In this document: positions 1 to 13,648 of the stretch, one piece after another
Layout of the letters: every line of letters begins with the position of its first letter
Numbering within the stretch: the stretch's first letter is position 1
Assembly: GCF_048403405.1 (NCBI RefSeq)
Contig: NZ_CP183131.1
Direction: 5' to 3' (one strand)
Source: Escherichia coli
Lineage (GTDB): Bacteria; Pseudomonadota; Gammaproteobacteria; Enterobacterales; Enterobacteriaceae
Length of the DNA: 64,000 bases
Program-made: the position numbers and the translations under genes
Notes under the pieces: model-generated
Databases searched by the model: none
Seen by the model: only the letters and a program-made list of their open reading frames with translations
What the model was told of the DNA's origin: nothing

Positions 1-1655
1 TCGCTTCGTTCACAGAGGTCAATCACTGAGCGACATGCCGGGGCGCTTTGAGGCTGCCCGTCAGTCACTACGATCAACATTTTTCGCTCTTCACGGGTCT
101 TGGTGAGTTCAAAAGCTGCATACCACATAGCTTCCGCCATAGGCGTACCGCCAGTTGCTTTGAACCCAAACCGACCGGCCCGATTCTGAACCGTATCTCC
201 ATGCTTCACGACACTGAACACTGGCTGGTTCCGGTTGCCACCAAAAAAGGTGACTGCCGGGTTTACGCCGGGTATTGCTTCCAGAGCCATCGAAATAGCC
301 AAGGACGCTTCCCGCGCAATGTCTTGACGCTCCTTTCCATTGGCGGCCTTGTAGGCCATCGAGGAGCTCATATCAACCAGGATGTGAACCGCCGTATTAG
401 GGCGTTTCTTGGCTTCCGGCTTGAGGAATACGCGGGTATCACCCGTCACTACACGATGTAGTTTCCGAGCATCCACACGCTTCCCTGATCGTTGGTTACG
501 GTGAGCAACTCGCTGGCTGGCCTGGACCAATCCGTAGAGCTGCGTTCTTATCTTTGAAGTGGTGCTCTTCACATCCCCTACCAGGCTTTTGCCAACAGCA
601 GGGTTGTCCTGGGTGTTCACAGCAGAGCGAACAGTCATATAGCTACTGTCCCCCTTATCTTGAGCCACCCGGTTGAGCTCGGCTTTAAGTGCATCATGCG
701 CGTCACCACGCAAATCACCGGCACCGGCATTCAGAACCTGCTGGAGCATTTTGGCCGCGTCTTGTTTCGCCGCGTCAGAATTGCCACCAGCCTGGCTTTG
801 TCCTGCCTTGCTGCCACCATCAGTATCCGACTTGCCTTGGTCGCCCTGTCCTTTCGGATCAGATTTCCCGTTAGCATCGTCTTGCTTCTGGTCTTTACCT
901 TGCTGATCACCACCATTGGCATCAGGCCCTTGGTTTTGATCGTTACCACTTCCGCCCTGACTGTTCTGAGGTTGGTTGCCACCAGCATTCTGCTGGTTGT
1001 TACCATCCTGACCATTCAGGGGCTTTTGCTCTTCTTTCTCCTTTTCCTCCTCGATCATCTTGATGATTTGGTCGGCCAAGGATGTCACCTCTGCGGTTGA
1101 CTTAGTGTTCACAGCCTTACGCAGTAAAGCGTTCAGCCGAACAACAACACCCTGAGGGAACACGCGCTCGAATACGGGGGTAGCCGAATCGAGATAGGGT
1201 TGAAGGACGGATTGCCCTACAGCCTTGGTTTGCAACCAGTACAAACAAAACCCTGTCAGAATGGAGGCAGGGGCCTCTTTGTCTGTGACGTGCTCGTAAT
1301 GACCAGCTTGAGCCATATAGCGAGCAACCTCATTCAGGGTCTGCGACGTACCGGGGAAGAGTTCCATCATGGCCCGTTCTATGCGGCAGTCCTCCAAAAC
1401 GTTGGACAACTCAGCATGAAGACCTCTGCGGCGCTCAACACCAAAGTCCGTAAACCGGACATGGGCTGCTTCATGGGCCAAATACCCCCAGACAGCATCC
1501 ATGTGAGGATAGTCGTCGGGGATATTCGGAACCACGATGGTCTTACCATCGGTGTATGCGTCATCGTTACCGATGGCGACTTTGACACCGAGTTTTTCAC
1601 CATAGGCTGCGGCCACGATTGGTAGAGCGCTGTAAATGGTGCGTTTTTTGGACAT
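1..1655 (-). CDS. vWA-domain protein (CobT-like partner of the CobS-like ATPase); 3' end runs off the window start
   Basis: Open minus-strand frame from ATG ~1655 (AGGAG 7 nt upstream) to position 1; absent from ORF track because no stop lies in the window. Hand translation of several stretches gives a Q/G/N/D-rich linker, then MIDAS-like VHILVDMSSS and VVTDGQPD. Confidence 0.7.
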   Translation of the reverse strand, partial: MSKKRTIYSALPIVAAAYGEKLGVKVAIGNDDAYTDGKTIVVPNIPDDYPHMDAVWGYLAHEAAHVRFTDFGVERRRGLHAELSNVLEDCRIERAMMELFPGTSQTLNEVARYMAQAGHYEHVTDKEAPASILTGFCLYWLQTKAVGQSVLQPYLDSATPVFERVFPQGVVVRLNALLRKAVNTKSTAEVTSLADQIIKMIEEEKEKEEQKPLNGQDGNNQQNAGGNQPQNSQGGSGNDQNQGPDANGGDQQGKDQKQDDANGKSDPKGQGDQGKSDTDGGSKAGQSQAGGNSDAAKQDAAKMLQQVLNAGAGDLRGDAHDALKAELNRVAQDKGDSSYMTVRSAVNTQDNPAVGKSLVGDVKSTTSKIRTQLYGLVQASQRVAHRNQRSGKRVDARKLHRVVTGDTRVFLKPEAKKRPNTAVHILVDMSSSMAYKAANGKERQDIAREASLAISMALEAIPGVNPAVTFFGGNRNQPVFSVVKHGDTVQNRAGRFGFKATGGTPMAEAMWYAAFELTKTREERKMLIVVTDGQPQSAPACRSVIDLCERS

Positions 1656-1739
1656 ATCTTTTCTCCTGGTAGGGAAGGAGATAGTCCACCCCTGGAGGGA
1701 ATGGCTATCCCCTCCGGGTCGGTTTAGTTGAAGTGACTA

Positions 1740-3017
1740 TTAGAAGAAATAGTCGCCATCGTCGTCAGTTTTAGGCAGCTCCTGGTTGAGAGGCTCCTCT
1801 GTCGGCTCCTCTTGGACAGGCTCTTGCTCTACCGGAGTTTCCTCAGGCAAAACCGGCTCATCCTCAACATCAACGCGCTCTTCTCGAACCACATCACCGG
1901 CATTGGATTCATCTTCCGATTCACCCTCGCCTCGTTCTGCAAAACTCTTGAAGAAGTTGTCGATGTCTTCATCCAGGTCAACAGCGTTACCACCGCTGTT
2001 AGTCTGTTCTGATTGAACAGATTCAGTACCACCTACCTGTTGCTGCTTGGTTTCGCCACCCTCTGTTGCAGGGATAAGCTCACCGGCTTTATCGCTTTTC
2101 TGTTCGGCCTTTTCATCTTTAGAACGGTCCCCCATCTGGGCTCCCGAACCGCCAATGTCATTAGCCATGCCCTCTACAGTAATCGAGCCATTGGCATACT
2201 GCTCGATGCGGTCCCTCTCGCTCATGATCAGCACTGCGGCCACGACCTGATAAAAGAAAGGCGCAACGATGTTTCGGCCATCGGCATGTTGCTCGTATCC
2301 CCGGAGGGTTTGGTCGAGCAGCTTGACCAGAGGGTTAAAAGCGCTGTTCAGGAAGCTAAGCCCATCCACCTTGTCGCGGATGTTACGGAGTGTCTGCCGA
2401 GTAGTGACCGCACATTGGTCTCGACCGGCCAAACGTTCCATATAGAACTTATTCGCTTCCTGAACCACTTCGGAGATGAGATCGTCACCCAAGCGCTCAA
2501 CCTTGCGGTTAAGGCGTTTGGCGTTGGCCTCATCTTCGTTCACAGGCTGGATCATGAACACCTGGTACTCAAAGCCAATCCGCTCCTCGACCGTTTCCTT
2601 TGGAAGGGCTCCGGCACGGATAGCTCGTTCATACTCAGGGTTCTCCTGACACCATTCATCCACGGCTTTGTTGTAACCTTTGATGAAATCCTGTTTCAGT
2701 TGGTTAAACTGAAAGTTTATGTCATTCAGCTTGTTACAGATTTCATCGGTCTTGCTGACGGGTACGGCAAATCCGTTCATGAACGGCATACCGAATTTCA
2801 GCAGGAGGCGACGAGTTTCTGTTTTCAGGCGATGAAAGCCTTTCAGCTTAGCCGGATCACAGATCTTCTTACTTCCCAGTTGAGCTACTTTCTCAGGTGG
2901 AATTTCACCACCCTCGCCCAGCTTGAGATCAGATGCAGACAAACGGGTTTGTCCACTCCAGATGTCAAAGTCTACGTGGATAACACAGAGGCTTTGTAGA
3001 TGGTTCACTTTAGTCAT
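1740..3017 (-). CDS. hypothetical protein with acidic C-terminal region ending DDDGDYFF
   Basis: ORF-track frame 1740..3029 uses a TTG; first ATG at ~3017 has GGAG 7-8 nt upstream. No recognisable catalytic motif. Confidence 0.6.
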   Translation of the reverse strand: MTKVNHLQSLCVIHVDFDIWSGQTRLSASDLKLGEGGEIPPEKVAQLGSKKICDPAKLKGFHRLKTETRRLLLKFGMPFMNGFAVPVSKTDEICNKLNDINFQFNQLKQDFIKGYNKAVDEWCQENPEYERAIRAGALPKETVEERIGFEYQVFMIQPVNEDEANAKRLNRKVERLGDDLISEVVQEANKFYMERLAGRDQCAVTTRQTLRNIRDKVDGLSFLNSAFNPLVKLLDQTLRGYEQHADGRNIVAPFFYQVVAAVLIMSERDRIEQYANGSITVEGMANDIGGSGAQMGDRSKDEKAEQKSDKAGELIPATEGGETKQQQVGGTESVQSEQTNSGGNAVDLDEDIDNFFKSFAERGEGESEDESNAGDVVREERVDVEDEPVLPEETPVEQEPVQEEPTEEPLNQELPKTDDDGDYFF

Positions 3018-3039
3018 GATGCACTCCAAAAAGTTGGGG

Positions 3040-3159
3040 GCGCACCACGTCCCGAACCGGGCGGATGCGCCCGGTTGGGCTAGTAAATTAACGTTAATTT
3101 GCTGTTTGTTTTTGGCGACCAGCTATCGCACTTTTCGCTCTCCGAAGAGAACAAAATCT
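3040..3159. repeat. 120-bp direct repeat copy A (hairpin AACCGGGCG-N4-CGCCCGGTT plus palindrome AATTAACGTTAATT), ~25-35 nt upstream of the 1740..3017 gene start
   Basis: Matches 7875..7994 over the full 120 bp by eye. Confidence 0.85.
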
Positions 3160-3216
3160 TGCTTTCCGTTGGAGACTCCCAGAATCCCCAAGGGAAAGCG
3201 GGGGAAAATCCCCCAC

Positions 3217-4227
3217 TCACCAGTAGAACGTCTCTACTTCTTCCGGCAAATCATCAAGAGGAGCAAGCACGTCCTCATCAACAATGTACCGTGGCTTCAC
3301 AGAGCCAGTAACCGTTACACGGCACCGCTCTGATGACTTCTCTCTGTACTGGTCAACATCCTCAGGCTTCACGCCTGACGCCTTATCAGCCAACAGCTTT
3401 TTGTAGTCTACCCGGCCAGCCGCTTTGTATCTCGTTACCATCACACCGCAGTAGTCGGCATGGAAGTATTCCCCCATGAGGGACTTCATGGTGTCGAGAT
3501 GAGGCTTTTGCCTTTCTTGAAGCTCAGACAGTCGCTGTTTCAGCTCCTGAATCTCAGCATCATAGAGGCGGTATTCCTCAGCAGCAGCAATCCAACGGTT
3601 GACCTCTTCACCTTGCGGTATGTACAGGTCTCTCTCTGGATCTTTGTCGGGCTCCTTCTTGTCTACTACCTGTTGCCAGAACTTTTTAGCCTCGGCCAAG
3701 ATTTCTTGAATCATGGCTTCGTCTCGGAGTATTGGAAACTCCTGAATCTGACCTTCAAAGTAGAAGACTAACCAGCCTTGCTTGGCCCCCGTTACCAGGA
3801 GCTGGTGTTGCACCTGCGGGTAATAAAGCTGGTATGCCTTGCTGTTTGCTTTCTCAGCACAAACATCTTCCCAGACAGTCGCACTCGGGCTTTTCAGCTC
3901 GACGGGCTCCCCGTTATCTCTCAGGCCATCCAGGGAGGCCCTCATGAGCGGGTATTGAACCGATTCGACACAGGCGGGGAGCAGCATGTCATCATACTTC
4001 TCCTCGAAAGCGCGTCTTGCAGCATCTTCGTTTTCTATCCCCCGGCGAACCAGCGGATTAAGACTCAGATCGACTTCACGCGCATACCCAGTCTTCTCGG
4101 CCCACAGTCTCCATCGTGTTTTGTACGGAGACCGATTGAGCAGGATAGCGGCGTCAGTGGCTGTTACACCTTGACGCCGCCAATCAAGCCAATCTTCCTC
4201 TCGTTGCGATAGGTTGACTATTTTCAT
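3217..4227 (-). CDS. exo: lambda Exo / YqaJ-like 5'-3' exonuclease
   Basis: 336-aa product resembles lambda exonuclease family; GGAGAGAGG before ATG; sits directly downstream of bet. Confidence 0.8.
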   Translation of the reverse strand: MKIVNLSQREEDWLDWRRQGVTATDAAILLNRSPYKTRWRLWAEKTGYAREVDLSLNPLVRRGIENEDAARRAFEEKYDDMLLPACVESVQYPLMRASLDGLRDNGEPVELKSPSATVWEDVCAEKANSKAYQLYYPQVQHQLLVTGAKQGWLVFYFEGQIQEFPILRDEAMIQEILAEAKKFWQQVVDKKEPDKDPERDLYIPQGEEVNRWIAAAEEYRLYDAEIQELKQRLSELQERQKPHLDTMKSLMGEYFHADYCGVMVTRYKAAGRVDYKKLLADKASGVKPEDVDQYREKSSERCRVTVTGSVKPRYIVDEDVLAPLDDLPEEVETFYW

Positions 4228-4289
4228 GGACCTCTCTCCAATGGTTAGGAGGGAGATCTCCCCCAGCGGGGGAGTCCCCCCCGTTGGGG

Positions 4290-5279
4290 TTAGTAGTAAC
4301 TGCCTTCCGCGCCCTCCTCTTCTGTAACAGGGATCATGTCCTCGTCACTCAAAGGCGGCATTTCTTCGGCACCAGGTTCAGCATTTGCAGAACCACCAGC
4401 GGCGGACTCTTGCTCGTGCGCTTCCTGGTAGTCAGGTTTCGGAGGCTCCATTTGATCCATCTCCTTGTCACGAAGGAATTGAGTCGCATATTGCAGTTCC
4501 GAACCTTCATACCGTCCCTTCACATACTCATGCGCCGCAGACCATGCGTTTTCAGCAATGGCGCGATTTGCGAGTTTGGTTAGGATCGGGTCAAGCTCTT
4601 TGTGCTCAATAGCCAAAGGCTCTTGGCTTTGAACTTGAGATGGTGAAGGGAGATTGGCAATAGCCGGGTTAATGGCCGATGCCTGCTCCATTTCACGGAT
4701 GCGTTCAGCTTCATCCTGGTCATAAATACCAGAGAAACCAAATGCGACACGAGAACACTGGATCAGCGACTTGTGCCGGAGTTGACGCTTGGTGTGCGTT
4801 TGCCAGGGGCCATCAACAGTGTAAGCACCATTGCGACCTTGACCCTGAAACGGTTCACGGTACACCTCATCAATGAACTCCTTGATGCGGATAGGGCGAG
4901 ATCTGTCCTTACGGTAAATCACGCATTCAATCCACTCAGGGCAGTCAACTTTCGCCCCCTGCATTCTGACCATCTTGTCCGAATACACGAACTCGACGCC
5001 ATCATACTGGGGATGCTCGTTGATGATGCGGCTCCAACCATCAACACCTACTACCGGAATGATCCCATTTTGCTTGTCAGGAAACGCATAGATTTCCCGA
5101 GTGAAAGGGTTCAAACCGTACTGTTCAGCCACGATCAGGAGCGTCATCATCTGCTCATCGGTCGGGGCACTTCCATCTCGCTGCTTGAATGCGGTCGCCT
5201 TCAAAGTTTCATAGAACTTTCGGGTGTCCACGCCAAACCGGCTTGCGATACGGGTTACAAGAGATTTGTTATCAGACAT
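4290..5279 (-). CDS. bet: Bet / RecT-family single-strand annealing protein
   Basis: Strong similarity to lambda Bet (LIVAEQYGLNP, EIYAFPDKQNGIIPVVGVDGWSRIINE, RQLRHKSLIQCSRVAFGF). Start moved to internal ATG with GGAG RBS. Confidence 0.9.
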   Translation of the reverse strand: MSDNKSLVTRIASRFGVDTRKFYETLKATAFKQRDGSAPTDEQMMTLLIVAEQYGLNPFTREIYAFPDKQNGIIPVVGVDGWSRIINEHPQYDGVEFVYSDKMVRMQGAKVDCPEWIECVIYRKDRSRPIRIKEFIDEVYREPFQGQGRNGAYTVDGPWQTHTKRQLRHKSLIQCSRVAFGFSGIYDQDEAERIREMEQASAINPAIANLPSPSQVQSQEPLAIEHKELDPILTKLANRAIAENAWSAAHEYVKGRYEGSELQYATQFLRDKEMDQMEPPKPDYQEAHEQESAAGGSANAEPGAEEMPPLSDEDMIPVTEEEGAEGSYY

Positions 5280-5373
5280 GGTGTTTCTCCAATTCACGAA
5301 TGAACGGTTTGAGGACACCATGACCCCCTCGGGGCATGAGTGCCCCCGTGGGGTTTAGTAAGAGTTGGCGGTG

Positions 5374-5901
5374 TTACCCGCCAGCCAAGTGGTGCAGCCG
5401 CATGAACGGGATGTCATCATCCCAGCCATCAGGAGCGGGACCATAGCCTCCGCCCATACCACCTTGCGGTGCTGATTGCTGCACAGGAGCAGATTGCGTA
5501 CCGGCTCCTGTACGTTGCCCTTTTTGGGGCGCTGCACGTTGAGAGTTGTCCTGAGGTGCATTTCCACGACCACCAAGCATCTGCATTTCAACGCAGTGTA
5601 CTTCGGTGGTGTAGCGCTCGATTTGTTGGCTGTCAGTCCACTTCCGGGTGCGGTTGCTCCCTTCGAGATAGACTTGGGAGCCCTTTTTCAGGTACTCACC
5701 AGCGACTTCTGCCAAACGACCTTTAAGCACAATACGGTGCCACTCAGTATGCTCTCTTTGCTCGCCAGACTGCTTATCGCGCCACGTATCCGTTGTTGCA
5801 ACGTTGAAGTTGGCAACGGCAGTTCCGCTTGGCATGTAGCGAATTTCCGGGTCAGAACCGAGATTACCGACCAGAATTACTTTGTTGACGCCTTTAGACA
5901 T
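5374..5901 (-). CDS. ssb: single-stranded DNA-binding protein
   Basis: OB-fold N-terminus ([22 protein letters not shown]), glycine-rich linker, canonical C-terminal tip DDDIPF. Confidence 0.9.
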
Positions 5902-5964
5902 CATGACCTCCAAGTTATTTGGAGAGGGCCAACGCCCCTTTCGGGGAGCAAGCCCCCGTAAGGG

Positions 5965-6873
5965 TTAAAAAAAGTGATCCTCTTGTTCGGCGTCGATCTC
6001 TGCCAGGCGAATCAGCTCAGATACAAGGCCAAGCCTTTCTGCATCTGCTCTTACTTCGTCGTAGCTGAAACCAAACCGTTCAATGAGGGGTTTTAGTGAA
6101 TCAAAACGCTCGTAGTCGAAGGTATCACCCTGTTCATCACAGAATGCCACCAGCGGCTTCTCTACGTTTGAAAAGTCATCCGCGAAACGCTGTTGCAGGT
6201 AAACCAACATCAGCAGGGGTTTGTGACCATGTTCCGGGCGGAGTTCACCAGCGCCTTCCAGCGTAGCTGGATGGATAGTGTTTTCGCCTAGTCCAGTGCT
6301 AACCCCAAGCTCATAACCGCTGTCAGTACGCATCAGCACACTGGGTAGCAAGTCATTTGAGCCTTCGCTCCGAGCAACCTCAAAGCCGATTAAACCGGCT
6401 CCTTTGGCAAAAACCCCAGCAACAAAACCTTTGAAGAGGTTTATGTCACCTGGAGGTAACTCAGAGGGCGGAGATAACAGCCAGTTGAGAGATCCCAAGC
6501 TGGCTGTTTGTCCGGCTGAAACATTCCCCCCTTCCAGCACCGTCTGTGTCTCTGCGTTTACCAGCACCTCATCCAGAAAGGTGTACCCCTGGCTGAGAAA
6601 CTGTGACACATACTGGCTTTCTTTGTCCTTGTAGGACATTGGGATCGTGTCTGGGCCGTTAGCTTCAAAAGGTCCTTCGAGCTTTGTCTCAGACCAATTT
6701 TCAGCTTTCCCATCAGTGACGGTTCGGCGTAGCTCGACCATCGTGAATTGGCCTGGCTCCGAGGAGCTGGGCTCCCGGAGCAACTTGTAGCCAATGAAGA
6801 CTTCTATTGTGGTTTCGTCATTGCCCCACTCTTTAGCAGTGTAACGACGGCACAAACAGTCATTTTTCTTCAT
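5965..6873 (-). CDS. hypothetical protein, C-terminus EQEDHFF
   Basis: 302-aa ORF packed between cobS-like gene and ssb on the same strand. Confidence 0.55.
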   Translation of the reverse strand: MKKNDCLCRRYTAKEWGNDETTIEVFIGYKLLREPSSSEPGQFTMVELRRTVTDGKAENWSETKLEGPFEANGPDTIPMSYKDKESQYVSQFLSQGYTFLDEVLVNAETQTVLEGGNVSAGQTASLGSLNWLLSPPSELPPGDINLFKGFVAGVFAKGAGLIGFEVARSEGSNDLLPSVLMRTDSGYELGVSTGLGENTIHPATLEGAGELRPEHGHKPLLMLVYLQQRFADDFSNVEKPLVAFCDEQGDTFDYERFDSLKPLIERFGFSYDEVRADAERLGLVSELIRLAEIDAEQEDHFF

Positions 6874-6883
6874 GCGTCACCCC

Positions 6884-7852
6884 TTAGCGCCATTGGTCCC
6901 CGAACACATCCTTCGCAACACGCAGGATGGCTTCACGCTCCTCTTTGGCCGCACGGATAAGCAGAGCTTGATCCAGGGCGTATTCAAGAGCATTTGGGGC
7001 ACCACGGAACGCTAGAGACAGTTTCGCCCAACGCACCAACGTCCGAGTGGACATGGTGACGCTGATCTGACCATCTTCACCGTTTTCGCCAAGAAACAGT
7101 TTGCGGACCTGATTAGCAATCCGAACCATTCCCTTCCGCACATTTTCCGGAAGTTTCGGAGTAACACGGCCAAGAATGCTGAGTTCAGCTTCCTCATCCG
7201 CATACCCTACTTTGGTGAAACGATAGCGATCCATAGCTGCGAGGTTCTGCATCATCACCCCCTGGTACAAACCAGAAGCATCACCGGACCCCGTAGAGTT
7301 ACCAGTAACGACCACACGAAACATCGGGTGCGGCTTGATGATTTCCCCGCCATTCTGAGCGATCACAAGGGGACGCCCTTCAAGGACATCGTTGAGACCA
7401 GCCAGCTCGGCAGGGTCGGCCAAATCCACCTCGTTGATGAGGAGCAGATGACCTTCACGCATAGCGACTGCCAGAGGTCCATACATGAACTTCATGACAG
7501 GTGGTTGACCAGGCTTTTCCGCGACCAGAGCGTGATGTCCAATCAGATCTGTCAGCTCCATCCGCCCGTGGGCAGTGATTTGCTGAACAGGCCAGTTGAG
7601 ACGACCAGCGATCTCGGTGATACCTGAGGTTTTGCCAGACCCGGTAGGGCCGGTTACGAACAATGCGTCACCGCCAGGCTCTTTGAGATAGGCCAAGACC
7701 TCTCGCAGAAACTCTTTGCGGAAAACGTAGTTGGTATCAGTGGCAGGGATGAAAGGGTTTGAACCGTCAGCGTAGCCGATGGCCGTTACCTTCTCCGGAA
7801 TGCTGGGCATACCGAAAACCTTGCTTACTGAGAATTGAGAGTATTGAGACAT
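6884..7852 (-). CDS. CobS-like / MoxR-type AAA+ ATPase
   Basis: Walker A GPTGSGKTS; Walker B-like LLLINEVD; AGGAG 7 nt before ATG. Confidence 0.8.
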   Translation of the reverse strand: MSQYSQFSVSKVFGMPSIPEKVTAIGYADGSNPFIPATDTNYVFRKEFLREVLAYLKEPGGDALFVTGPTGSGKTSGITEIAGRLNWPVQQITAHGRMELTDLIGHHALVAEKPGQPPVMKFMYGPLAVAMREGHLLLINEVDLADPAELAGLNDVLEGRPLVIAQNGGEIIKPHPMFRVVVTGNSTGSGDASGLYQGVMMQNLAAMDRYRFTKVGYADEEAELSILGRVTPKLPENVRKGMVRIANQVRKLFLGENGEDGQISVTMSTRTLVRWAKLSLAFRGAPNALEYALDQALLIRAAKEEREAILRVAKDVFGDQWR

Positions 7853-7874
7853 AGGTGCGCTCCTATTGTGACAG

Positions 7875-7994
7875 GCGCACCACGTCCCGAACCGGGCGGA
7901 TGCGCCCGGTTGGGCTAGTAAATTAACGTTAATTTGCTGTTTGTTTTTGGCGACCAGCTATCGCACTTTTCGCTCTCCGAAGAGAACAAAATCT
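7875..7994. repeat. 120-bp direct repeat copy B, immediately upstream of the cobS-like gene start
   Basis: Identical by eye to 3040..3159. Confidence 0.85.
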
Positions 7995-8071
7995 GCTTAC
8001 TGATGGTATTCACCATGAGTAAGAAGACTTTTAAGGAGCGAGGAGAGTAGCCTCTCCTGGAGGCCACTCCC

Positions 8072-8323
8072 TCAATGGACGAACATCACCACATCGTCGT
8101 TTTGACCAATGACCCCGGTTTCTTTGGCCCACTTCACTGCTTCACTGTGCGCCTGGTAGGAGCTGGAATACAGTTTCGGATCAAATTTCACCTCGCGTCC
8201 ATCAGCCAGATAGATGATGCCTGCGTGATCGTCGTAAACATGAAGATTCTGTTGCATTCGACATTCCCCCTGTAGCTTGTCGTCAAAGCCAACTGACACC
8301 AGAAGACTTTGAGGACAAGCCAC
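8072..8323 (-). CDS. hypothetical small protein (83 aa)
   Basis: ORF only; position between repeat copy B and upstream small genes. Confidence 0.4.
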   Translation of the reverse strand: MACPQSLLVSVGFDDKLQGECRMQQNLHVYDDHAGIIYLADGREVKFDPKLYSSSYQAHSEAVKWAKETGVIGQNDDVVMFVH

Positions 8324-8370
8324 AGAGGCTTGACCAGAAAGAGAGGGGTTGCCCCCTCCCTTTGCGTTGA

Positions 8371-8466
8371 CTATCAGCAGTAACCGAACGATTCAGCGAT
8401 TCTCACGAAAGGACGAGAGATTGCCCAACCAGTAGGGATACACAAAGCGATGATAGCGATTTCCAT
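8371..8466 (-). CDS. possible small hydrophobic peptide (31 aa, MEIAIIALCIPTGW...)
   Basis: ATG preceded by AGGAGCAACATC, nearly identical to the initiation region of the 8561..8881 gene, and placed right after a terminator hairpin; below ORF-track size cutoff. Confidence 0.3.
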
Positions 8467-8487
8467 GATGTTGCTCCTAAGCAAAAA

Positions 8488-8520
8488 GGGGCAACATCCC
8501 CGTCGGGGTATGGTTGCCCC
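8488..8520 (-). terminator. rho-independent terminator-like hairpin (GGGGCAAC...GTTGCCCC + U-run on minus strand)
   Basis: Inverted repeat followed by T-run on the coding (minus) strand, just downstream of the 8561 stop. Confidence 0.5.
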
Positions 8521-8560
8521 GATGGGTTTGAAAGTGTCGAAGATTACTCAGCGACAGTTA

Positions 8561-8881
8561 TTACCAAACAAGTTCCTTGCCCTTACGAAGGTAAGTCGGG
8601 ATTTCGAGATAATCCCAGTCAGGTTCTTGTTTAGCGACTTCTTGAACTTGAGTTACCTCAGGTTCAACGACTGCTTTGGCTTGTTCAGCCTTGGCAGCAC
8701 GTTCTTTGATGACGGCCTGTACAGACCGCATTGCAGGAACTGCGAATTTGTTCCAAAGGAACAAACCGATACGCTGGAACACTTTAGCGAGAACGATGAA
8801 GGAAAAAGCAAATGCCTTCGCGCCTACGTACAGTGCGCCCAGAGATGCAAGCAGAACTACAATGAAAGTGATGATGTGCAT
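8561..8881 (-). CDS. small membrane protein whose C-terminus (EPDWDYLEIPTYLRKGKELVW) mimics the conserved FtsZ C-terminal peptide
   Basis: N-terminal hydrophobic segment IITFIVVLLASLGALYVGAKAFAFSFIVLA; AGGAG 7 nt before ATG; tail matches E. coli FtsZ ...EPDYLDIPAFLRKQAD. Confidence 0.65.
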   Translation of the reverse strand: MHIITFIVVLLASLGALYVGAKAFAFSFIVLAKVFQRIGLFLWNKFAVPAMRSVQAVIKERAAKAEQAKAVVEPEVTQVQEVAKQEPDWDYLEIPTYLRKGKELVW

Positions 8882-9078
8882 GGTGTTGCTCCTATGTAAA
8901 AAAACAGGGGCAACACCCGAAAACCGGGAGAAGCCCCCGGCTTGGGGTTAAGTAATGCCATACGGCATAAGACTAGATGCTGTTTGTTTTCGGAGACCAG
9001 CTATCTCACCTATAGCCGCAGAGCGACTAAGATGATTCAAATATAGCTCACCTTTGCTAAACAGAAAACGCTGTAACT

Positions 9079-9093
9079 GTCCATTTTGGGCAC
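9079..9093. promoter_or_regulatory. GCCCAWTTTGGRCA-type box (candidate AcaCD/SetCD-like activator site)
   Basis: GTCCATTTTGGGCAC preceded by CTGT; one of five similar boxes. Confidence 0.45.
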
Positions 9094-9174
9094 TTCGAGA
9101 GGTCAGGTTACAGATTGACCGCATTTATCCTTTCCAGTGCGTTTATCTGTACCTCAAATTTAGGAGTATCTCTA

Positions 9175-9816
9175 ATGGCAGAAGCACAAGTAGCACTGGA
9201 CACAAACAACGACCGCAGCAACCACTACTCTCGCCCTGTTTTCAAGCAAGTTCTGAAAGTAAACAGCCTCCAAGCTCAGCGCGTCATGGAACGCAGCTTT
9301 GAGCGAGTTTCCAACTCCCTGTTCTCCATCGACGTGATCCTTCGCATCATCGGTGAGCAGGACGAAATCGACCAGGTTGAAACCGTCATCCTGGAACACA
9401 TTTCCAAGGTCTCCGAAGACCTGGACAAAGCTACCGCCCAGCTCAACAAGCTGATGGAAGACAACGGCATCGACATGATGCCCGGCTACACCAACCCGAA
9501 TGAATACACCATCGAGATCAACTCTCCTCAGGTTGCTCAGTTTGCACACCTGATCCGCAAACTGGATACCCTGATGGGGATCGTTGACACTCTCTGGCTG
9601 AACACCGTACTGACCAGCAAGCAGCGCACCGACGCCACTTACCAATGGCAGCAACGCCTCATCAAGCTGGCCGGTCGAATCATCGGCATCGAGAAACGGG
9701 CTCGCATTTCCGCCCACAGCAAAGGCAAAGAAGGTGAAGTGGCCGAAGCCGCTCCGGAATCTGCAACCGGCGACAAGGAAATCGCAGACGAAGCCGAGAA
9801 AACAAAAGCAGCATAA
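9175..9816 (+). CDS. hypothetical protein (213 aa)
   Basis: AGGAG 8 nt before ATG at 9175 (ORF-track frame 9115..9816); followed by a terminator. Confidence 0.6.
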   Translation: MAEAQVALDTNNDRSNHYSRPVFKQVLKVNSLQAQRVMERSFERVSNSLFSIDVILRIIGEQDEIDQVETVILEHISKVSEDLDKATAQLNKLMEDNGIDMMPGYTNPNEYTIEINSPQVAQFAHLIRKLDTLMGIVDTLWLNTVLTSKQRTDATYQWQQRLIKLAGRIIGIEKRARISAHSKGKEGEVAEAAPESATGDKEIADEAEKTKAA

Positions 9817-9832
9817 CCCAGCCCAAACCTTT

Positions 9833-9858
9833 GCCCCTCGCCCGAGGGGCTTTTTTTT
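9833..9858 (+). terminator. rho-independent terminator (GCCCCTCG/CGAGGGGC + T8)
   Basis: GC hairpin followed by TTTTTTTT. Confidence 0.75.
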
Positions 9859-9938
9859 GTCTTTTATGGTTGCATTTTTTGATGCTGTGATATTATCGAA
9901 GTAAATCAGATTCAACTCAGGTAAGAACGGAGAACAAC

Positions 9939-10799
9939 ATGAAAAAGGCTTTAATCACCACCGTGGCTCTGGCTGTAGCAGCTCTATCTGGCTGTGCATC
10001 CACCAGCAGTTACGAACCCACAGCGTACAAAACCAATCACAGTCGCGCTTACAACATCGCGGAGGCCGGTGGCCTGGTAACAGGCATCCAAGACGCTTCT
10101 GTTCCGCGTGACAAGCTGGAGCGTCTGACCGACACCAAAACGTTTGGGGCAGCCTACGTGCTGTCTGGCTACATGTCCCCTCAGCTCGGAATGACCGACT
10201 GGCAAGGTGGCTTGGTCAACCTTGCGAACTGGGCTATCGGCCCCAAACAGCATGGCGCTCGCAATAGCTTGATCGCTTGGATGCCTGCTAACGAAGCAGT
10301 TTCACCGGCAGACGCTCAGGCCAAATTTCTTTCACATGTGAAAGTTTCCATTGAGTCAGCGCTGACTGATTTGGGTGCCAATTTCACGCTTCTGTATGAC
10401 AAAGATGGTCGCCTAACCTATCAGTTCTACAAGAATGAATGGGGTTGCCCGACGTGGGTGAACGGACAAAGTAAGGTAGCTGACATGTGTTCCGTTAAGG
10501 TGAAAATCGTGGAGCCTCGCCTAGGGTCAGCTCCTAATTTTGTCTCTGGCGTTCAAGGTACAGCGTATGCCTTCACATCAGGCCATGAGACCGCATACAA
10601 CTTTGTGAATGTCGGTAATGGGGCAGCAAGCCATGCTCCTCAGCAAGCGATCTACGCAGCTATTAGCAAACAGCTACCAGCTTGGGCCTACCTCTACCTT
10701 GCTCCAAAATCGGTTGAGCTGGATAATGGCGAAAAAGTTGCTTTCCCTTACCTTCTTGATCAGGGAAAAGCAGAGTTATTTGTTTACCCAGAAGCGTAA
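9939..10799 (+). CDS. lipoprotein (lipobox LSGC), function unknown
   Basis: MKKALITTVALAVAALSGCAS signal peptide. Confidence 0.65.
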   Translation: MKKALITTVALAVAALSGCASTSSYEPTAYKTNHSRAYNIAEAGGLVTGIQDASVPRDKLERLTDTKTFGAAYVLSGYMSPQLGMTDWQGGLVNLANWAIGPKQHGARNSLIAWMPANEAVSPADAQAKFLSHVKVSIESALTDLGANFTLLYDKDGRLTYQFYKNEWGCPTWVNGQSKVADMCSVKVKIVEPRLGSAPNFVSGVQGTAYAFTSGHETAYNFVNVGNGAASHAPQQAIYAAISKQLPAWAYLYLAPKSVELDNGEKVAFPYLLDQGKAELFVYPEA

Positions 10800-10811
10800 T
10801 CAATCTACATG

Positions 10812-10838
10812 AGAAAGGGGCCGAAAGGCCCCTTTTTT
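10812..10838. terminator. bidirectional terminator hairpin (GGGGCCGAAAGGCCCC) between lipoprotein gene and traN
   Basis: A-run / hairpin / T-run shared by convergent genes. Confidence 0.7.
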
Positions 10839-13648
10839 TATCCACCACCACCAGTTGGCGCGCCTGTTTGAGGGTCTATGCTGTTTGTCGCCTCTTTTCG
10901 CTTCGCGTCAATATCAATCCCTTCCAACCGCTCCAACGCCCTTTCCTGAGCATTCTTCCGCGTCCCGTCAATATTGAAGTCATTCCCTGCTCCAGTCAGC
11001 GAGTCGAGATTTATTGAGGCCGGATCAGGGAATTTACCGTTCTGCTGTAATATCCCAAGCCACTCATCCAAATTAATTTTGCTCCAATCAATTTCGGCAA
11101 TTTTATCTAGTGGAATCCCTTCACACTGAGGATTTTTGGGGTCTCCAAAGTTCTGCCCCAATTGAGGGCGAACCTGTTCTTGTATAATACGAGAGAGCGG
11201 AGAATTGAAGCAGCAATACGCTTCTCTTTTTTCAATACAAGCGCCCAACACCTTAGATTTACAATAAGAGCCTACATAGGTGCAATTCTTGAGCGCTCTT
11301 TTGGCGTTCATAGTGAACTCTTCTTCCTCGCACTTATAAATCATCTGGATCATCACCATCGCAACGACATAGACGGTATATATCGTCATGGCAGTGCTAA
11401 GCCATGTTGTCGCAGTCTCCATCATTGCTTCGGCAGCTTGTTCAGATGCTGCGGCAGCCGCCTGCTCTGTTGCTGCATCTTGGCCTGCTGATTTCATGAC
11501 ATCCATCATCACTTCTTTGACTTGCTCTTTGAGCTGGTCAATGAGTTGATCAACAAACTGCTCTACAGGCTGGAAGAACGAATCAACAGCACCTGAAACG
11601 TTCTCTATATAACTTGTGAACGGTTTTGTGACTTCTGTCCACCCTTGAAGGGCAGGTTCCCTAAGTACCTGATAAGCACCTTTAAGCGCATTACCATCAG
11701 TCAGCCCCATCACTGCGCCATCGAGCTTTGGAACGGCCATTATTAGGTTCAGATAATCGGCAAGAGATATATTGGTTGGCTTTTCACAGCAATCAGAAAC
11801 TCCCCCAACAGCTATCTTGCATTCGCCAGCTTCCCCTGCAAAAGCAGAGCAAATAACGTTTTCATCCCCGGTAGGATTGTCATCCCCATCTTGGCCTGTG
11901 CAGCTCATATCCTGCGTCATGAATTGGGCTGCATTGAGCAACGCAGTAGCGCGAGCAAAATCAGTGCTTTGTGTTTTGGTCAAATCAAGGCAGTCATCTC
12001 CCATGCAGCGTATAGGCCCACCGCACTGGTACTCAGTTTCCTTTTCCAAGGTCGGAACAGAAACATCTGTACCACAGTCATAAGTATCCTCGTGGACGTA
12101 GCACGTACCAGAACTTCCCTGAGCACCATCAACACATTTGGAACTGATGAAGCCGCACTGAGGGTTTTCTTCATATTTCTGACAGCTATCGAGATTCCCG
12201 CCCGTGTTTACCGGACAGTGCGTTTCACCTTGAGGGTCTGTCCAGCAGTCCATTTGCCCCTTATAAAAGTCATAGTCAGCTTTAACTCGAACCTTTTTGC
12301 ATAGTTTTGGAATACCAGGCAAAGGTGACGGCTTGAGTTGAGATTCGCAAACTTTGATCCCATTGATGACTGTGCAGCCCGTAGCATCAGTCGGGTCATC
12401 TATACATGTGATCTCGCCTTCCGCAAAACCATCTACAACCCCTTTGGCTGAATCCATGCAGCTCTGTGGAGCCCACTCATCCTTGGTAATGGCTTTTGAT
12501 GGGTCATAGCGTAGCTTTATGCGGCCAAAACCCTCACCTGCGCCAGTTACTGAAACGCGGATCTTAAACGTAACAACATCACCATCTTTCACATTCTTGA
12601 AATAGGGAGTGACATCAATATTAGGGTTTCGCTCCCAACTTGTTGACAATTCACATCGGCCAGCCGTTTCTGGAGGGAAATTGCCGTCAGGGCCGGACCA
12701 TACTTTAGTTTCCTGACCTGATTTACCAACCCAAACTTGCATGTAGTCATCCCACTTGGCGTACTCAAGAGTTGCAGACACTATGGCGTCTGGATTACTG
12801 ACTTGGACCCGCGTGTATTCCTCATAAATCGAACAGTTGCCACTCCAGTAGTCGTTACCAACTCGGCCAATCCACAACTCAGTACAGCCTTCTCCACAAG
12901 ATTTGAGGTTATATGGACCATCATAGTGCTTCACCACAGAGGCATCGTAGTCATGGACAACCTCACAGTCCGCGCTTTGATCTACAACACGCTGACACCG
13001 TTCATACTCTGGAATGTGGGCGTTGATAGTATTCTGATTGATGGTTGTTTCGGCAGAACAATCCCCAAAGCCACCTGCGATGAGGTCCATATCCTCATAG
13101 GTCTTTTTGCTTAGATTTAGTACAGGGTCATTACTGAAATCAGGGCGTGATCGATTAGAGGCATCGAGAAGAACCTTGTATGCCGCACCAGAGATTGATG
13201 GATTAGCACTATTGGCATCACTCCACAGCGACCCTTTTGCATTATTCCCCACGCTGTCCATGTCATCGCCAGAGTCGTAAATGCCTTGCAGACCGCCCAC
13301 ATCAGGTTTATTGGCATCAGGGAAGTAATAACTATCAGGTTTATTGTTGGTCCCGCTCGTTCCGGGGAATAGATCATTGACATTAATCTGACTCCCCCCG
13401 TTCATTTGGAATTGACCGTCTTTCAACGTCGGCATAGAGATTGTGCCATCTTGCACAGTCCCCGAGCTCGACTTGAATGAGTTTGAGAGGTTTTGTCCGA
13501 AAGCCTGGGCCTCTTTACCCACCGCTGTGATGTCCTGGTCTTGGCTACCGTTAGCGTAGGAATGTATCGGCAGCGCAGACATGGTTACTGTCAACAGCGA
13601 GGCCACAGCTTTCATAAAGTAATTATGACTTCGCATTGTGTTCTCCAT
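10838..13648 (-). CDS. traN: TraN-like mating-pair stabilisation outer-membrane protein
   Basis: 936 aa, signal peptide, very cysteine-rich C-terminal half; order traW-traU-traN. Confidence 0.8.
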   Translation of the reverse strand: MENTMRSHNYFMKAVASLLTVTMSALPIHSYANGSQDQDITAVGKEAQAFGQNLSNSFKSSSGTVQDGTISMPTLKDGQFQMNGGSQINVNDLFPGTSGTNNKPDSYYFPDANKPDVGGLQGIYDSGDDMDSVGNNAKGSLWSDANSANPSISGAAYKVLLDASNRSRPDFSNDPVLNLSKKTYEDMDLIAGGFGDCSAETTINQNTINAHIPEYERCQRVVDQSADCEVVHDYDASVVKHYDGPYNLKSCGEGCTELWIGRVGNDYWSGNCSIYEEYTRVQVSNPDAIVSATLEYAKWDDYMQVWVGKSGQETKVWSGPDGNFPPETAGRCELSTSWERNPNIDVTPYFKNVKDGDVVTFKIRVSVTGAGEGFGRIKLRYDPSKAITKDEWAPQSCMDSAKGVVDGFAEGEITCIDDPTDATGCTVINGIKVCESQLKPSPLPGIPKLCKKVRVKADYDFYKGQMDCWTDPQGETHCPVNTGGNLDSCQKYEENPQCGFISSKCVDGAQGSSGTCYVHEDTYDCGTDVSVPTLEKETEYQCGGPIRCMGDDCLDLTKTQSTDFARATALLNAAQFMTQDMSCTGQDGDDNPTGDENVICSAFAGEAGECKIAVGGVSDCCEKPTNISLADYLNLIMAVPKLDGAVMGLTDGNALKGAYQVLREPALQGWTEVTKPFTSYIENVSGAVDSFFQPVEQFVDQLIDQLKEQVKEVMMDVMKSAGQDAATEQAAAAASEQAAEAMMETATTWLSTAMTIYTVYVVAMVMIQMIYKCEEEEFTMNAKRALKNCTYVGSYCKSKVLGACIEKREAYCCFNSPLSRIIQEQVRPQLGQNFGDPKNPQCEGIPLDKIAEIDWSKINLDEWLGILQQNGKFPDPASINLDSLTGAGNDFNIDGTRKNAQERALERLEGIDIDAKRKEATNSIDPQTGAPTGGGG

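Follow-up and report, generated by a model that had tools for sequence, protein, structure and literature searches.

In IncC (A/C2) conjugative plasmids, the regions upstream of vcrx087, of a small unannotated open reading frame (ORF), of a cobS-like gene and of a DUF3150 gene are probably copies of one modular, bistable messenger RNA (mRNA) leader that would gate translation initiation. Each leader is predicted to fold in two mutually exclusive ways, one of which buries the Shine-Dalgarno sequence (SD) of the gene that follows. The window analysed here, the whole stretch of 64,000 nucleotides (nt) from Escherichia coli contig NZ_CP183131.1 (assembly GCF_048403405.1), is IncC backbone; it has matches in 849 PLSDB records, mostly with identities of at least 99%, and shares 98.1% identity with pVCR94deltaX. 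All features and genes of the finding are located on the minus strand, and positions are those of the window unless pVCR94 is named.

An earlier note on this DNA had described GC hairpins with U-runs immediately followed by near-identical ribosome-binding sites (RBSs). Unit A, upstream of vcrx087 (8881..8561), consists of a hairpin (8939..8905), UUUUUUU (8904..8898) and AGGAGCAACACC-ATG (8893..8879). Unit B, upstream of the small ORF (8466..8374), consists of a hairpin (8520..8488), UUUUUGCUU (8487..8479) and AGGAGCAACATC-ATG (8478..8464). The repeated initiation region AGGAGCAACAYC-ATG is indeed present at 8893..8879 and 8478..8464, and that of the cobS-like gene reads AGGAGCGCACCT-ATG (7864..7850), as had been noticed. 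With at most one mismatch, AGGAGCAACAYCATG has two matches in 64 kb against 0.01 expected, and none of 100 shuffled sequences reaches two. The GC hairpin and U-run before the RBS are also real: on nascent RNA the stems abut the U-run, which is U7 in unit A (-23.3 kcal/mol) and U5 followed by GCUU in unit B (-22.4 kcal/mol). A simple terminator scan of the window listed neither hairpin because their internal structure violates the loop rule of the scan. The elements of the two units are as follows.

9007..9034, minus strand: H1-A, the first hairpin of leader A, with the core UAGUCGC-UCU-GCGGCUA (minimum free energy (MFE) fold).
8978..9007, minus strand: block D1-A, with stem GAGA/UCUC, loop UAGCUGG and tail CGAAAACAAACAGCA; one of three copies in the window.
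8955..8968, minus strand: H2-A, a small hairpin, AUGCC-GUAU-GGCAU (MFE fold; kept in orthologues).
8921..8943, minus strand: H3-A, which holds the decoy segment seg1 (an SD-like 5' arm) in the SD-closed state (folds).
8898..8939, minus strand: the SD-open conformer of unit A, a terminator-like hairpin CGGGGGC...GCCCCUG (8939..8905) followed by U7 (nascent MFE fold).
8882..8917, minus strand: H4-A, the SD-sequestering hairpin, in which the anti-SD GGUGUUGCCCCUG pairs with UAGGAGCAACACC; SD at 8893..8889 (inverted repeat I10, folds, swap test).
8479..8525, minus strand: upstream part of unit B, with H3-B (8525..8500), the open hairpin GGGGCAAC...GUUGCCCC (8520..8488) and UUUUUGCUU (folds).
8467..8498, minus strand: H4-B, the SD-sequestering hairpin GAUGUUGCCCCU : UAGGAGCAACAUC; SD at 8478..8474 (inverted repeat I7).

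In both units, inverted repeats (I7 and I10) show that the stretch from the SD to the AUG can pair with the 3' arm of the hairpin preceding it. The initiation regions of A and B are near-identical because each must pair with such an arm, and a C-to-U change of B relative to A in the SD arm is compensated by a G-to-A change in the partner arm. Four segments follow one another: seg1, a decoy resembling the SD region (as in GGGCGCA versus GGAGCGCA), seg1', seg2, which is the anti-SD, and seg3, which runs from the SD to the AUG. In the predicted closed state, seg1 pairs with seg1' (H3) and seg2 with seg3 (H4), so that the SD is buried. When SD pairing is forbidden, every leader folds into the open state, in which seg1 and seg2 form one long hairpin and the SD is free. 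The anti-SD arm of units A and B shifts its partner accordingly: RNA ending at the U-run folds into a terminator-shaped hairpin, and RNA that includes the SD folds with the SD buried. The open hairpins of A and B look like terminators because the U-rich loop of H4 follows and is long enough.

All folds are in silico, and the barriers are upper bounds obtained with findpath. The leaders fold more stably than shuffled sequences (z = -5.2, -4.2 and -8.1; overall range, -4.2 to -8.1). SD/anti-SD complementarity is found in all 23 distinct leaders examined, at -16 to -23 kcal/mol. The arms of the SD hairpin are unrelated among paralogues and yet always complementary; in the seven paralogues, none of 1854 derangements of the arms is as good as the native combination. 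The pairing of decoy with anti-SD also co-varies, with a native energy of -80.0 against a deranged mean of -54.4, and none of 265 derangements is as good. The open hairpin is the MFE structure before the SD is transcribed in eight of eight modules. Once the SD is present, the closed state is favoured by 3-12.5 kcal/mol across the modules and by 9-10 kcal/mol in A and B. The barriers amount to 14-18 kcal/mol from open to closed, 21-29 kcal/mol from closed to open and 9-21 kcal/mol from nascent H3 to open (20.7 kcal/mol in unit B). On these models, the leaders combine co-varying SD pairing with co-varying, mutually exclusive anti-SD pairing, which places them among SD-sequestering switches.

The leader family is larger than was first noticed, a fourth related leader being found at 3159..3017, in front of the DUF3150 gene.

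7935..7991, minus strand: upstream part of leader C, with H1-C (7991..7967) and block D1-C (7964..7935; stem GCGA/UCGC).
7845..7934, minus strand: downstream part of leader C, with the H2-C palindrome (7934..7921), H3-C with the decoy GGGCGCA (7911..7890) and H4-C (folds).
3015..3159, minus strand: leader C', 5' of the DUF3150 gene, including block D1-C' (3129..3100) (repeat search, folds).

H4-C buries both the SD (7864..7860) and the AUG (7852..7850) of the cobS-like gene, and the open alternative of leader C is 12.5 kcal/mol above the closed fold. SD pairing in this leader is retained with other bases (GGUGCGCC versus GGAGCGCACC). Over 121 nt, leader C' (3159..3039) is 100% identical to leader C (7994..7874); the SD/AUG arm of C' is its own and uses three G:U pairs to bind the anti-SD common to both leaders. 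Such perfect identity suggests gene conversion. As a direct repeat on the minus strand (3039-3159 and 7874-7994), the 121 nt flank the genes from the cobS-like gene through exo, about 4.8 kb, and are a potential substrate for deletion of the recombination module.

Besides the cobS-like and DUF3150 genes, the same switch precedes four more genes, which gives seven full modules on pVCR94. A full module consists of H1, a conserved block, an optional small hairpin, the GC hairpin H3, and H4 ending 0-4 nt before the AUG. All seven blocks of pVCR94 belong to the transcribed strand and precede a start codon by 96-124 nt; the copies in the window are at 9007..8978, 7964..7935 and 3129..3100. Unit B does not carry the block and seems to be an incomplete copy of unit A, confined to its 3' half. 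The module is kept in IncA, Edwardsiella, pAQU-type Vibrio and Aeromonas plasmids, where the vcrx087 proteins are only 45-53% identical, and the stem of H1-A is kept with base changes in E. anguillarum (GCGACUA) and Aeromonas. The paralogous leader architecture proposed earlier is thus borne out and was understated, with seven full modules and unit B on one plasmid and hundreds of copies in other Proteobacteria.

The block is a near-invariant element of about 30 nt with a co-varying 4-bp stem, an invariant UAGCUGG loop and an A-rich AAACAAACAGCA tail (CAAAAACAAACAGCA in the IncC modules). Among 56 distinct copies, compensatory changes are present at four of four stem pairs and 99.1% of cells are paired, and the loop and tail are invariant. 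Stem covariation is 0.316 versus 0.110 (0 of 500 shuffles), and the signal collapses when the partner column is slid. Seven G:U (G:T) wobbles against one C:A point to the sense strand. The free arms together with the invariant loop indicate a hairpin in single-stranded nucleic acid rather than a duplex operator. A pseudoknot between loop and tail (GCUG:CAGC) is possible; its pairs never vary and give no covariation signal. Rfam 15 has no match at the seven IncC modules at E<=1 and none in window positions 6500-11000 at E<=10. A literature search by sequence string and by concept found no description of the block or the switch.

Several known elements were considered and rejected for the block. 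A Chi-like site (GCTGGTCG versus GCTGGTGG), judged by eye, does not fit, as the would-be Chi nucleotides co-vary with the stem instead. A sigma-54 promoter, also judged by eye, was rejected. The block is not a site of the activator AcaCD: the published motif, GCCCNDWWWGGGC, is matched by the real box further upstream, and there is no peak in chromatin immunoprecipitation with exonuclease treatment (ChIP-exo) at the other copies. Neither GCCCNDWWWGGGC at -64..-37 nor ChIP-exo occupancy is found for the repeated block. An AcaB site was rejected because Pacr1, the known target of AcaB, has no such hairpin. Among the matches listed, AcaB homologues are the commonest neighbours of the block, at no fewer than 37 loci, which is attributed to conservation of the divergent acaB/vcrx087 pair.

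An exact-pattern scan of species-representative genomes finds the block in at least 120 contig stretches of Gamma-, Beta- and Alphaproteobacteria, and a single contig can carry as many as seven copies, all in one orientation; these and the following figures for distant genomes hold among the matches listed. The family consensus is GCGGTAGCTGGCCGC...AAACAAACAGCA. An SD with an open start codon is found 72-182 nt, most often about 100 nt, 3' of the block in 100 of 124 unique copies. The genes 3' of the blocks encode DUF3799 PDDEXK nucleases, cobS-like ATPases, DUF3150 proteins, small unknown proteins and vcrx087-like proteins, and the neighbourhoods contain AcaB homologues, SSB, RecT/Bet, exonuclease, RadC and primase. 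By sequence, the leader family is one of IncC resistance plasmids and of related mobile elements across Proteobacteria. In the distant genomes the SD has an unpaired probability of 0.21, versus 0.35 for control genes of the same contigs (p = 2e-7). The anti-SD prefers its own decoy over foreign ones (median rank 0.19; Wilcoxon p = 1.5e-4), and decoy pairing in the distant copies is a trend.

Several points weigh against the gating of initiation by these leaders. SD burial in the distant copies is not universal (69 of 96 by heuristic start calls, again among the matches listed), and IncC modules E and F are only weakly bistable. The folding evidence is wholly in silico, so that the translational effect on these genes remains predicted. 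Furthermore, the genes are clearly expressed and functional in vivo, and the closed state therefore cannot be absolute.

One mapped promoter lies upstream of unit A.

9069..9097, minus strand: AcaCD activator box of the vcrx087 promoter, containing GCCCAAAATGGAC; it overlaps the divergent acaB box at 9074..9102 (plus strand).
9033..9035 (about 9034), minus strand: transcription start site (TSS) of the vcrx087 mRNA, from 5' rapid amplification of cDNA ends (5'-RACE) at pVCR94 65081-65083, mapped to the window.

The box corresponds to the pVCR94 AcaCD motif at 65019-65047 (Carraro 2014, Table S3), and its GCCCAAAATGGAC matches the published GCCCNDWWWGGGC motif. The TSS was determined by 5'-RACE at pVCR94 65081-65083 (Carraro et al. 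2014). A TSS at about 9034 places unit A wholly within a 153-nt 5' untranslated region (5'UTR). No ChIP-exo peak or AcaCD site is present between pVCR94 65047 and 75267. Published RNA sequencing (RNA-seq) shows that vcrx087-vcrx096 all depend on AcaCD, with levels of 0-23 without it and 904-11025 with it, from one box over 10 kb. The cobS-like gene is AcaCD-dependent and lacks a separate AcaCD box. For leader C, an internal sigma-70 promoter was considered and rejected: the scan lists none nearby, and expression of about zero without AcaCD argues against a constitutive internal promoter there. A vcrx087 promoter-lacZ fusion has been reported to be constitutive as well as AcaCD-activated, whereas in the delta-acaCD plasmid the RNA level of this gene is about 5 (promoter region 9040-9097, minus strand). 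Plasmid-encoded silencing or a property of the leader could account for this discrepancy.

The earlier note had taken the architecture to suggest attenuation, or translational coupling, through terminator read-through. If so, the units would be terminators or attenuators, and regulated read-through would set transcription of the downstream operon. The stable nascent GC stems abutting U7 and U5 and the mutual exclusion of the open and closed folds are what such control would use, and Rockhopper calls vcrx087 a separate transcription unit. The hairpin and U-run of unit B are also kept in IncA, V. rumoiensis, E. ictaluri and Aeromonas, so that the U-run is conserved in all five lineages having unit B. 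However, IncA (CUUUAACUAU) and Aeromonas (UAAUACCUUUC) have lost the U-run in unit A and yet retain the SD hairpin. On nascent RNA, modules C, C', D, E, F and G do not present a GC hairpin with a U-run, which is carried only by A and B, and the switch occurs without a U-run in five of the seven full modules. Published RNA levels, an indirect gauge of termination, show no drop across A and B in the presence of AcaCD: 3445 for vcrx087 (from 5 without AcaCD), 11025 for vcrx088 and 3463 for the cobS-like gene (from 3). Moreover, polymerase reaches the U-run before the SD arm, which therefore comes too late to act as an antiterminator when termination is decided. H3 forms earlier and excludes the terminator hairpin; it could serve as an antiterminator according to the folds, and the barrier from H3 to the open hairpin is high in unit B.

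Because most full modules have no U-run, that of unit A is not conserved and no polarity is seen, SD gating, and not attenuation, is quite likely the conserved function, and we regard attenuation as unlikely. Terminator activity is plausible only for unit B, which may have it in part. Thus, of the proposed tie between terminator and RBS, the structural link holds, as hairpin and RBS share an arm, and read-through attenuation as a conserved function is not favoured. Classical translational coupling is excluded for unit A by its position in a 5'UTR with a mapped TSS. It is improbable for the other modules, where intergenic gaps are 95-220 nt and the distance from stop codon to SD is about 83 nt (B) and about 210 nt (C).

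The RNA data also bear on a role in mRNA processing or stability, in which RNase E or RNase III would cut near the block, hairpins would protect the ends, and pairing of the SD would be incidental or would damp translation mildly. Modules are located at Rockhopper operon breaks before vcrx089, vcrx094 and vcrx098, and the hairpin-flanked vcrx088 has the highest RNA level. RNase E prefers RN|WUU, and the block tail often ends in ...CAGC-AUU, which resembles this preference. However, the AUU past the tail is not conserved in the IncC copies, and such a role explains neither the covariation of the SD-complementary and decoy arms nor the fact that the AUG invariably follows the 3' arm within 0-4 nt. 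We therefore consider processing quite improbable as the primary function.

Another reading is that the hairpins act in single-stranded DNA (ssDNA) of the transferred strand, as priming (ssi) sites or as ssDNA promoters for early expression in the recipient. The copies are many, co-oriented and hairpin-rich, and precede ssb, bet, exo and methylase-type 'establishment' genes. The invariant loop contains CTG, primase genes are nearby at a minimum of 13 loci among the matches listed, and Frpo and ssi sites provide a precedent. However, the G:T wobbles, together with the three G:U pairs of C', are on the sense strand, which cannot be the template. The spacing of about 100 nt to start codons and the pairing of SD and AUG would be senseless for a priming site, and unit A is demonstrably transcribed as a 5'UTR. 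An Frpo-like promoter in particular has the wrong architecture: no long hairpin rebuilds -35 and -10 elements as in Frpo, the hairpins being short (4-14 bp). The 'recombination hot spot' of Hegyi is a different site. A function in ssDNA is thus very improbable.

The genes of this region, in the order traN; sfx and acaB (divergent, plus strand); vcrx087; the 30-amino-acid (aa) ORF; vcrx088; the cobS-like gene; a 302-aa gene; ssb, bet and exo; and the DUF3150 gene (assigned by Pfam), include the following.

8561..8881, minus strand: vcrx087, 106 aa, with an N-terminal transmembrane (TM) helix and an FtsZ-tail-like C-terminal peptide (ORF; annotated in IncC records).
8374..8466, minus strand: hydrophobic 30-aa ORF, MEIAIIALCIPTGWAISRPFVRIAESFGYC, unannotated (frame and stop kept in five lineages).
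6884..7852, minus strand: cobS-like AAA ATPase, vcrx089 (Pfam AAA_5 and CbbQ_C).

The C-terminus of the vcrx087 product (...EPDWDYLEIPTYLRKGKELVW) matches the conserved C-terminal peptide of E. coli FtsZ (...EPDYLDIPAFLRKQAD) at 9 of 11 positions, and the motif is retained in homologues as low as 45% identity; the protein has no Pfam match. Judged by its sequence, it may be a membrane-anchored mimic of the FtsZ tail that affects division in transfer-competent cells. Unrelated-looking TM proteins adjacent to blocks also carry such a tail, in Marinomonas (…YDTPTFVRKGILFW) and Rhodocyclales (…KYDVPAFIRRG). The small ORF downstream of unit B is hydrophobic as the earlier note had said but encodes 30 rather than 31 aa, its 31 codons including the stop. 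It is without annotation in every record inspected. The peptide is kept in IncC, IncA, V. rumoiensis, E. ictaluri and Aeromonas plasmids, with an in-frame 9-nt insertion in the IncA copy and 12 of the 22 nt differences from Aeromonas at codon position 3. E. anguillarum and pAQU-type Vibrio plasmids lack it.

Small hydrophobic products, 106 aa with a TM helix and 30 aa, are reminiscent of type I toxin-antitoxin systems, in which an occluded SD would be activated by processing and controlled by an antisense RNA; hok and tisB mRNAs typically have an occluded SD and fold metastably. However, the leader also gates large cytoplasmic enzymes (the cobS-like ATPase, DUF3150 and a PDDEXK nuclease), and the genes are AcaCD-induced members of a long operon. 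At 8371-8560, a simple scan lists nothing resembling a promoter on the opposite strand. Toxin-antitoxin-like control is extremely improbable.

Further structures lie around these genes. A long imperfect hairpin, I1 (8267-8328, minus strand; 29-nt arms, 79% complementary), has the GGGGG SD of vcrx088 (ATG at 8257) in its 3' arm; it occludes this SD and is not accompanied by the conserved block. A terminator-like GAGGGGTTGCCCCCTC with weak U-tracts on both strands is located at 8342-8358, directly past the stop codon of the small ORF. A strong terminator, GCCCCTCGCCCGAGGGGC followed by T8, is located 3' of acaB at 9833-9850 (plus strand), and fits the terminator predicted in the literature between acaB and sfx. 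Outside the window, a 49-aa ORF unannotated in RefSeq, MNKFQDFKLVYRQGGRRLERVF..., follows module G near pVCR94 position 89963, and a counterpart (MNNKFQDFKLVYRQGGRRLERLF...) follows a block copy in a metagenome-assembled genome of a marine Rhodospirillaceae.

How the leaders would be switched is suggested by the order in which their parts appear. During transcription, the local hairpins H3 and H4 would form first, and the barriers between the states appear to be high. By default, then, the transcripts would stay silent until some input keeps H3 from forming. Such an input would probably be a host factor acting at the block, with its 4-bp stem, UAGCUGG loop and AAACAAACAGCA tail, although whether the block is the input site is an even call. 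Of the possible factors, we favour one of the RfaH/NusG type; loaded in the manner of JUMPStart leaders, it would bring about read-through and deliver ribosomes before H4 closes.

JUMPStart/ops leaders belong to RfaH-dependent operons such as waaQ, rfb, hly and F tra. Like JUMPStart, the block is an element of the non-template strand in 5' leaders, and the proteobacterial operons concerned are long and were acquired horizontally. It shares with the first hairpin of JUMPStart a variable 4-bp stem ending in GG, a loop starting with UAGCUG and the position in an operon leader. In E. coli K-12, this hairpin reads CAGG-UAGCUGUUGAG-CCUG at waaQ and CUGG-UAGCUGUAAAG-CCAG at rfb, each directly before ops, and the two stems show a compensatory difference. 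To our knowledge, no function has been assigned to the first-half hairpin of JUMPStart. The waaQ JUMPStart region of E. coli K-12, in which the first-half hairpin co-varies with that of rfb, is annotated as the small RNA RirA. The GGUAGC core of the block equals ops positions 4-9, and there is a precedent on plasmids, as host RfaH is needed for the F tra operon.

The block, of the form N2GR-UAGCUGG-YN2, differs from JUMPStart in its loop (7 nt versus 11), in the absence of a following ops, in its seven copies per element rather than one per operon, and in its invariant A-rich AAACAAACAGCA tail, which stands in the place of ops. The 12-nt ops consensus GGCGGTAGCGTG is not present: the family consensus GCGGTAGCTGG matches only ops positions 2-9, and the IncC copies, reading GCGATAGC or GAGATAGC, differ at positions 10-11. 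Because these features of ops are missing, the block is classed as resembling the first hairpin of JUMPStart and not as an ops site.

Several findings weigh against RfaH itself. Canonical ops positions 10-12 are absent, and ops-G5, which RfaH contacts, is A in five of seven IncC copies and in 26% of all copies listed. Among the matches listed, the equivalent of C3 is C in only 61 of 120 copies, and the co-varying N4:N4' stem excludes the C3:G8 mini-hairpin of ops in about half. The A-rich tail has no counterpart in JUMPStart, and the modules have strong, occluded SDs, unlike RfaH targets, which classically have none. No paper linking rfaH with IncC was found. An element-encoded NusG/RfaH paralogue was also considered and rejected: none was found on pVCR94 or in the flanks examined, either in the annotation or by phmmer --max. 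RfaH specifically as the input is therefore rather doubtful.

Comparison with other systems helps to place the switch. As in translational attenuation of ermC and cat and in SD-sequestering riboswitches, exclusive helices decide whether the SD is paired. Unlike in ermC and cat, the alternative pairing joins the first segment with the third, not the second with the third, and no conserved leader peptide is present: a search of the leaders found no conserved frame, and GUG-NNN-UAG is confined to IncC copies, its frame not being kept in the wider family. A conserved putative sensor followed by a variable platform with co-varying arms is riboswitch-like, but the sensor is 30-60 nt 5' of the platform, unlike in riboswitches. 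The block resembles preQ1-I and SAM-II riboswitches in its short stem, its size of about 30 nt and a loop GCUG complementary to a 3' CAGC past an A-rich linker; unlike these, it has no Rfam match, its pseudoknot pairs are invariant, and it does not overlap the SD. In the MS2 maturation gene and hok mRNA, too, the equilibrium fold hides the SD, the nascent fold differs and the barriers are high. Unlike there, the earliest local hairpin, H3, favours the closed path, so that the nascent open window is not automatic and seems to need a factor. The standby site of tisB is also a stem-loop with a single-stranded A/C-rich stretch about 100 nt 5' of a structured RBS. It is not conserved in sequence, unlike the block, which is near-invariant in three proteobacterial classes, and the SD hairpins here, at -15 to -20 kcal/mol, are far more stable. 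Leader and antitermination control in Gram-positive conjugation operons (conAn of pLS20, zipper attenuation) likewise involves structured leaders in long conjugation and establishment operons, with terminators that have to be overcome. The sequences there are unrelated, each operon has one leader instead of one per gene, and pLS20 encodes its own antiterminator; no gene of that kind was found here in the annotation or by phmmer.

We tentatively propose, as a possibility rather than an expectation, that the block and the three-way switch constitute an undescribed class of riboregulator with many copies on conjugative plasmids and integrative and conjugative elements of Alpha-, Beta- and Gammaproteobacteria, in which a host factor or ligand bound to the block decides co-transcriptionally whether each establishment or recombination gene is translated. 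Such a block-bound factor could be RfaH on a JUMPStart-derived hairpin, delivering ribosomes to SD-occluded genes. If this is true, a per-gene, post-initiation layer of control lies beneath master activators of the AcaCD/SetCD/BisDC type.

Multidrug resistance is spread to a major extent by IncC and IncA plasmids and related plasmids, whose regulation has been described only at promoters (AcaCD, AcaB, Acr1/2). A leader switch before ssb-bet-exo, cobS-like/vWA, DUF3150, nuclease and small membrane protein genes would add a translational layer. Such a layer could explain why promoter fusion and in-plasmid data disagree for vcrx087, and could provide a handle on the timing of establishment. For RNA biology, the block is a compact, near-invariant 30-nt motif that nature supplies in hundreds of co-varying copies, and an expression platform accompanies each of them. 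If its likeness to JUMPStart reflects common descent, a large class of mobile elements would come under RfaH-type control, and the first half of JUMPStart, so far unexplained, would gain a function.

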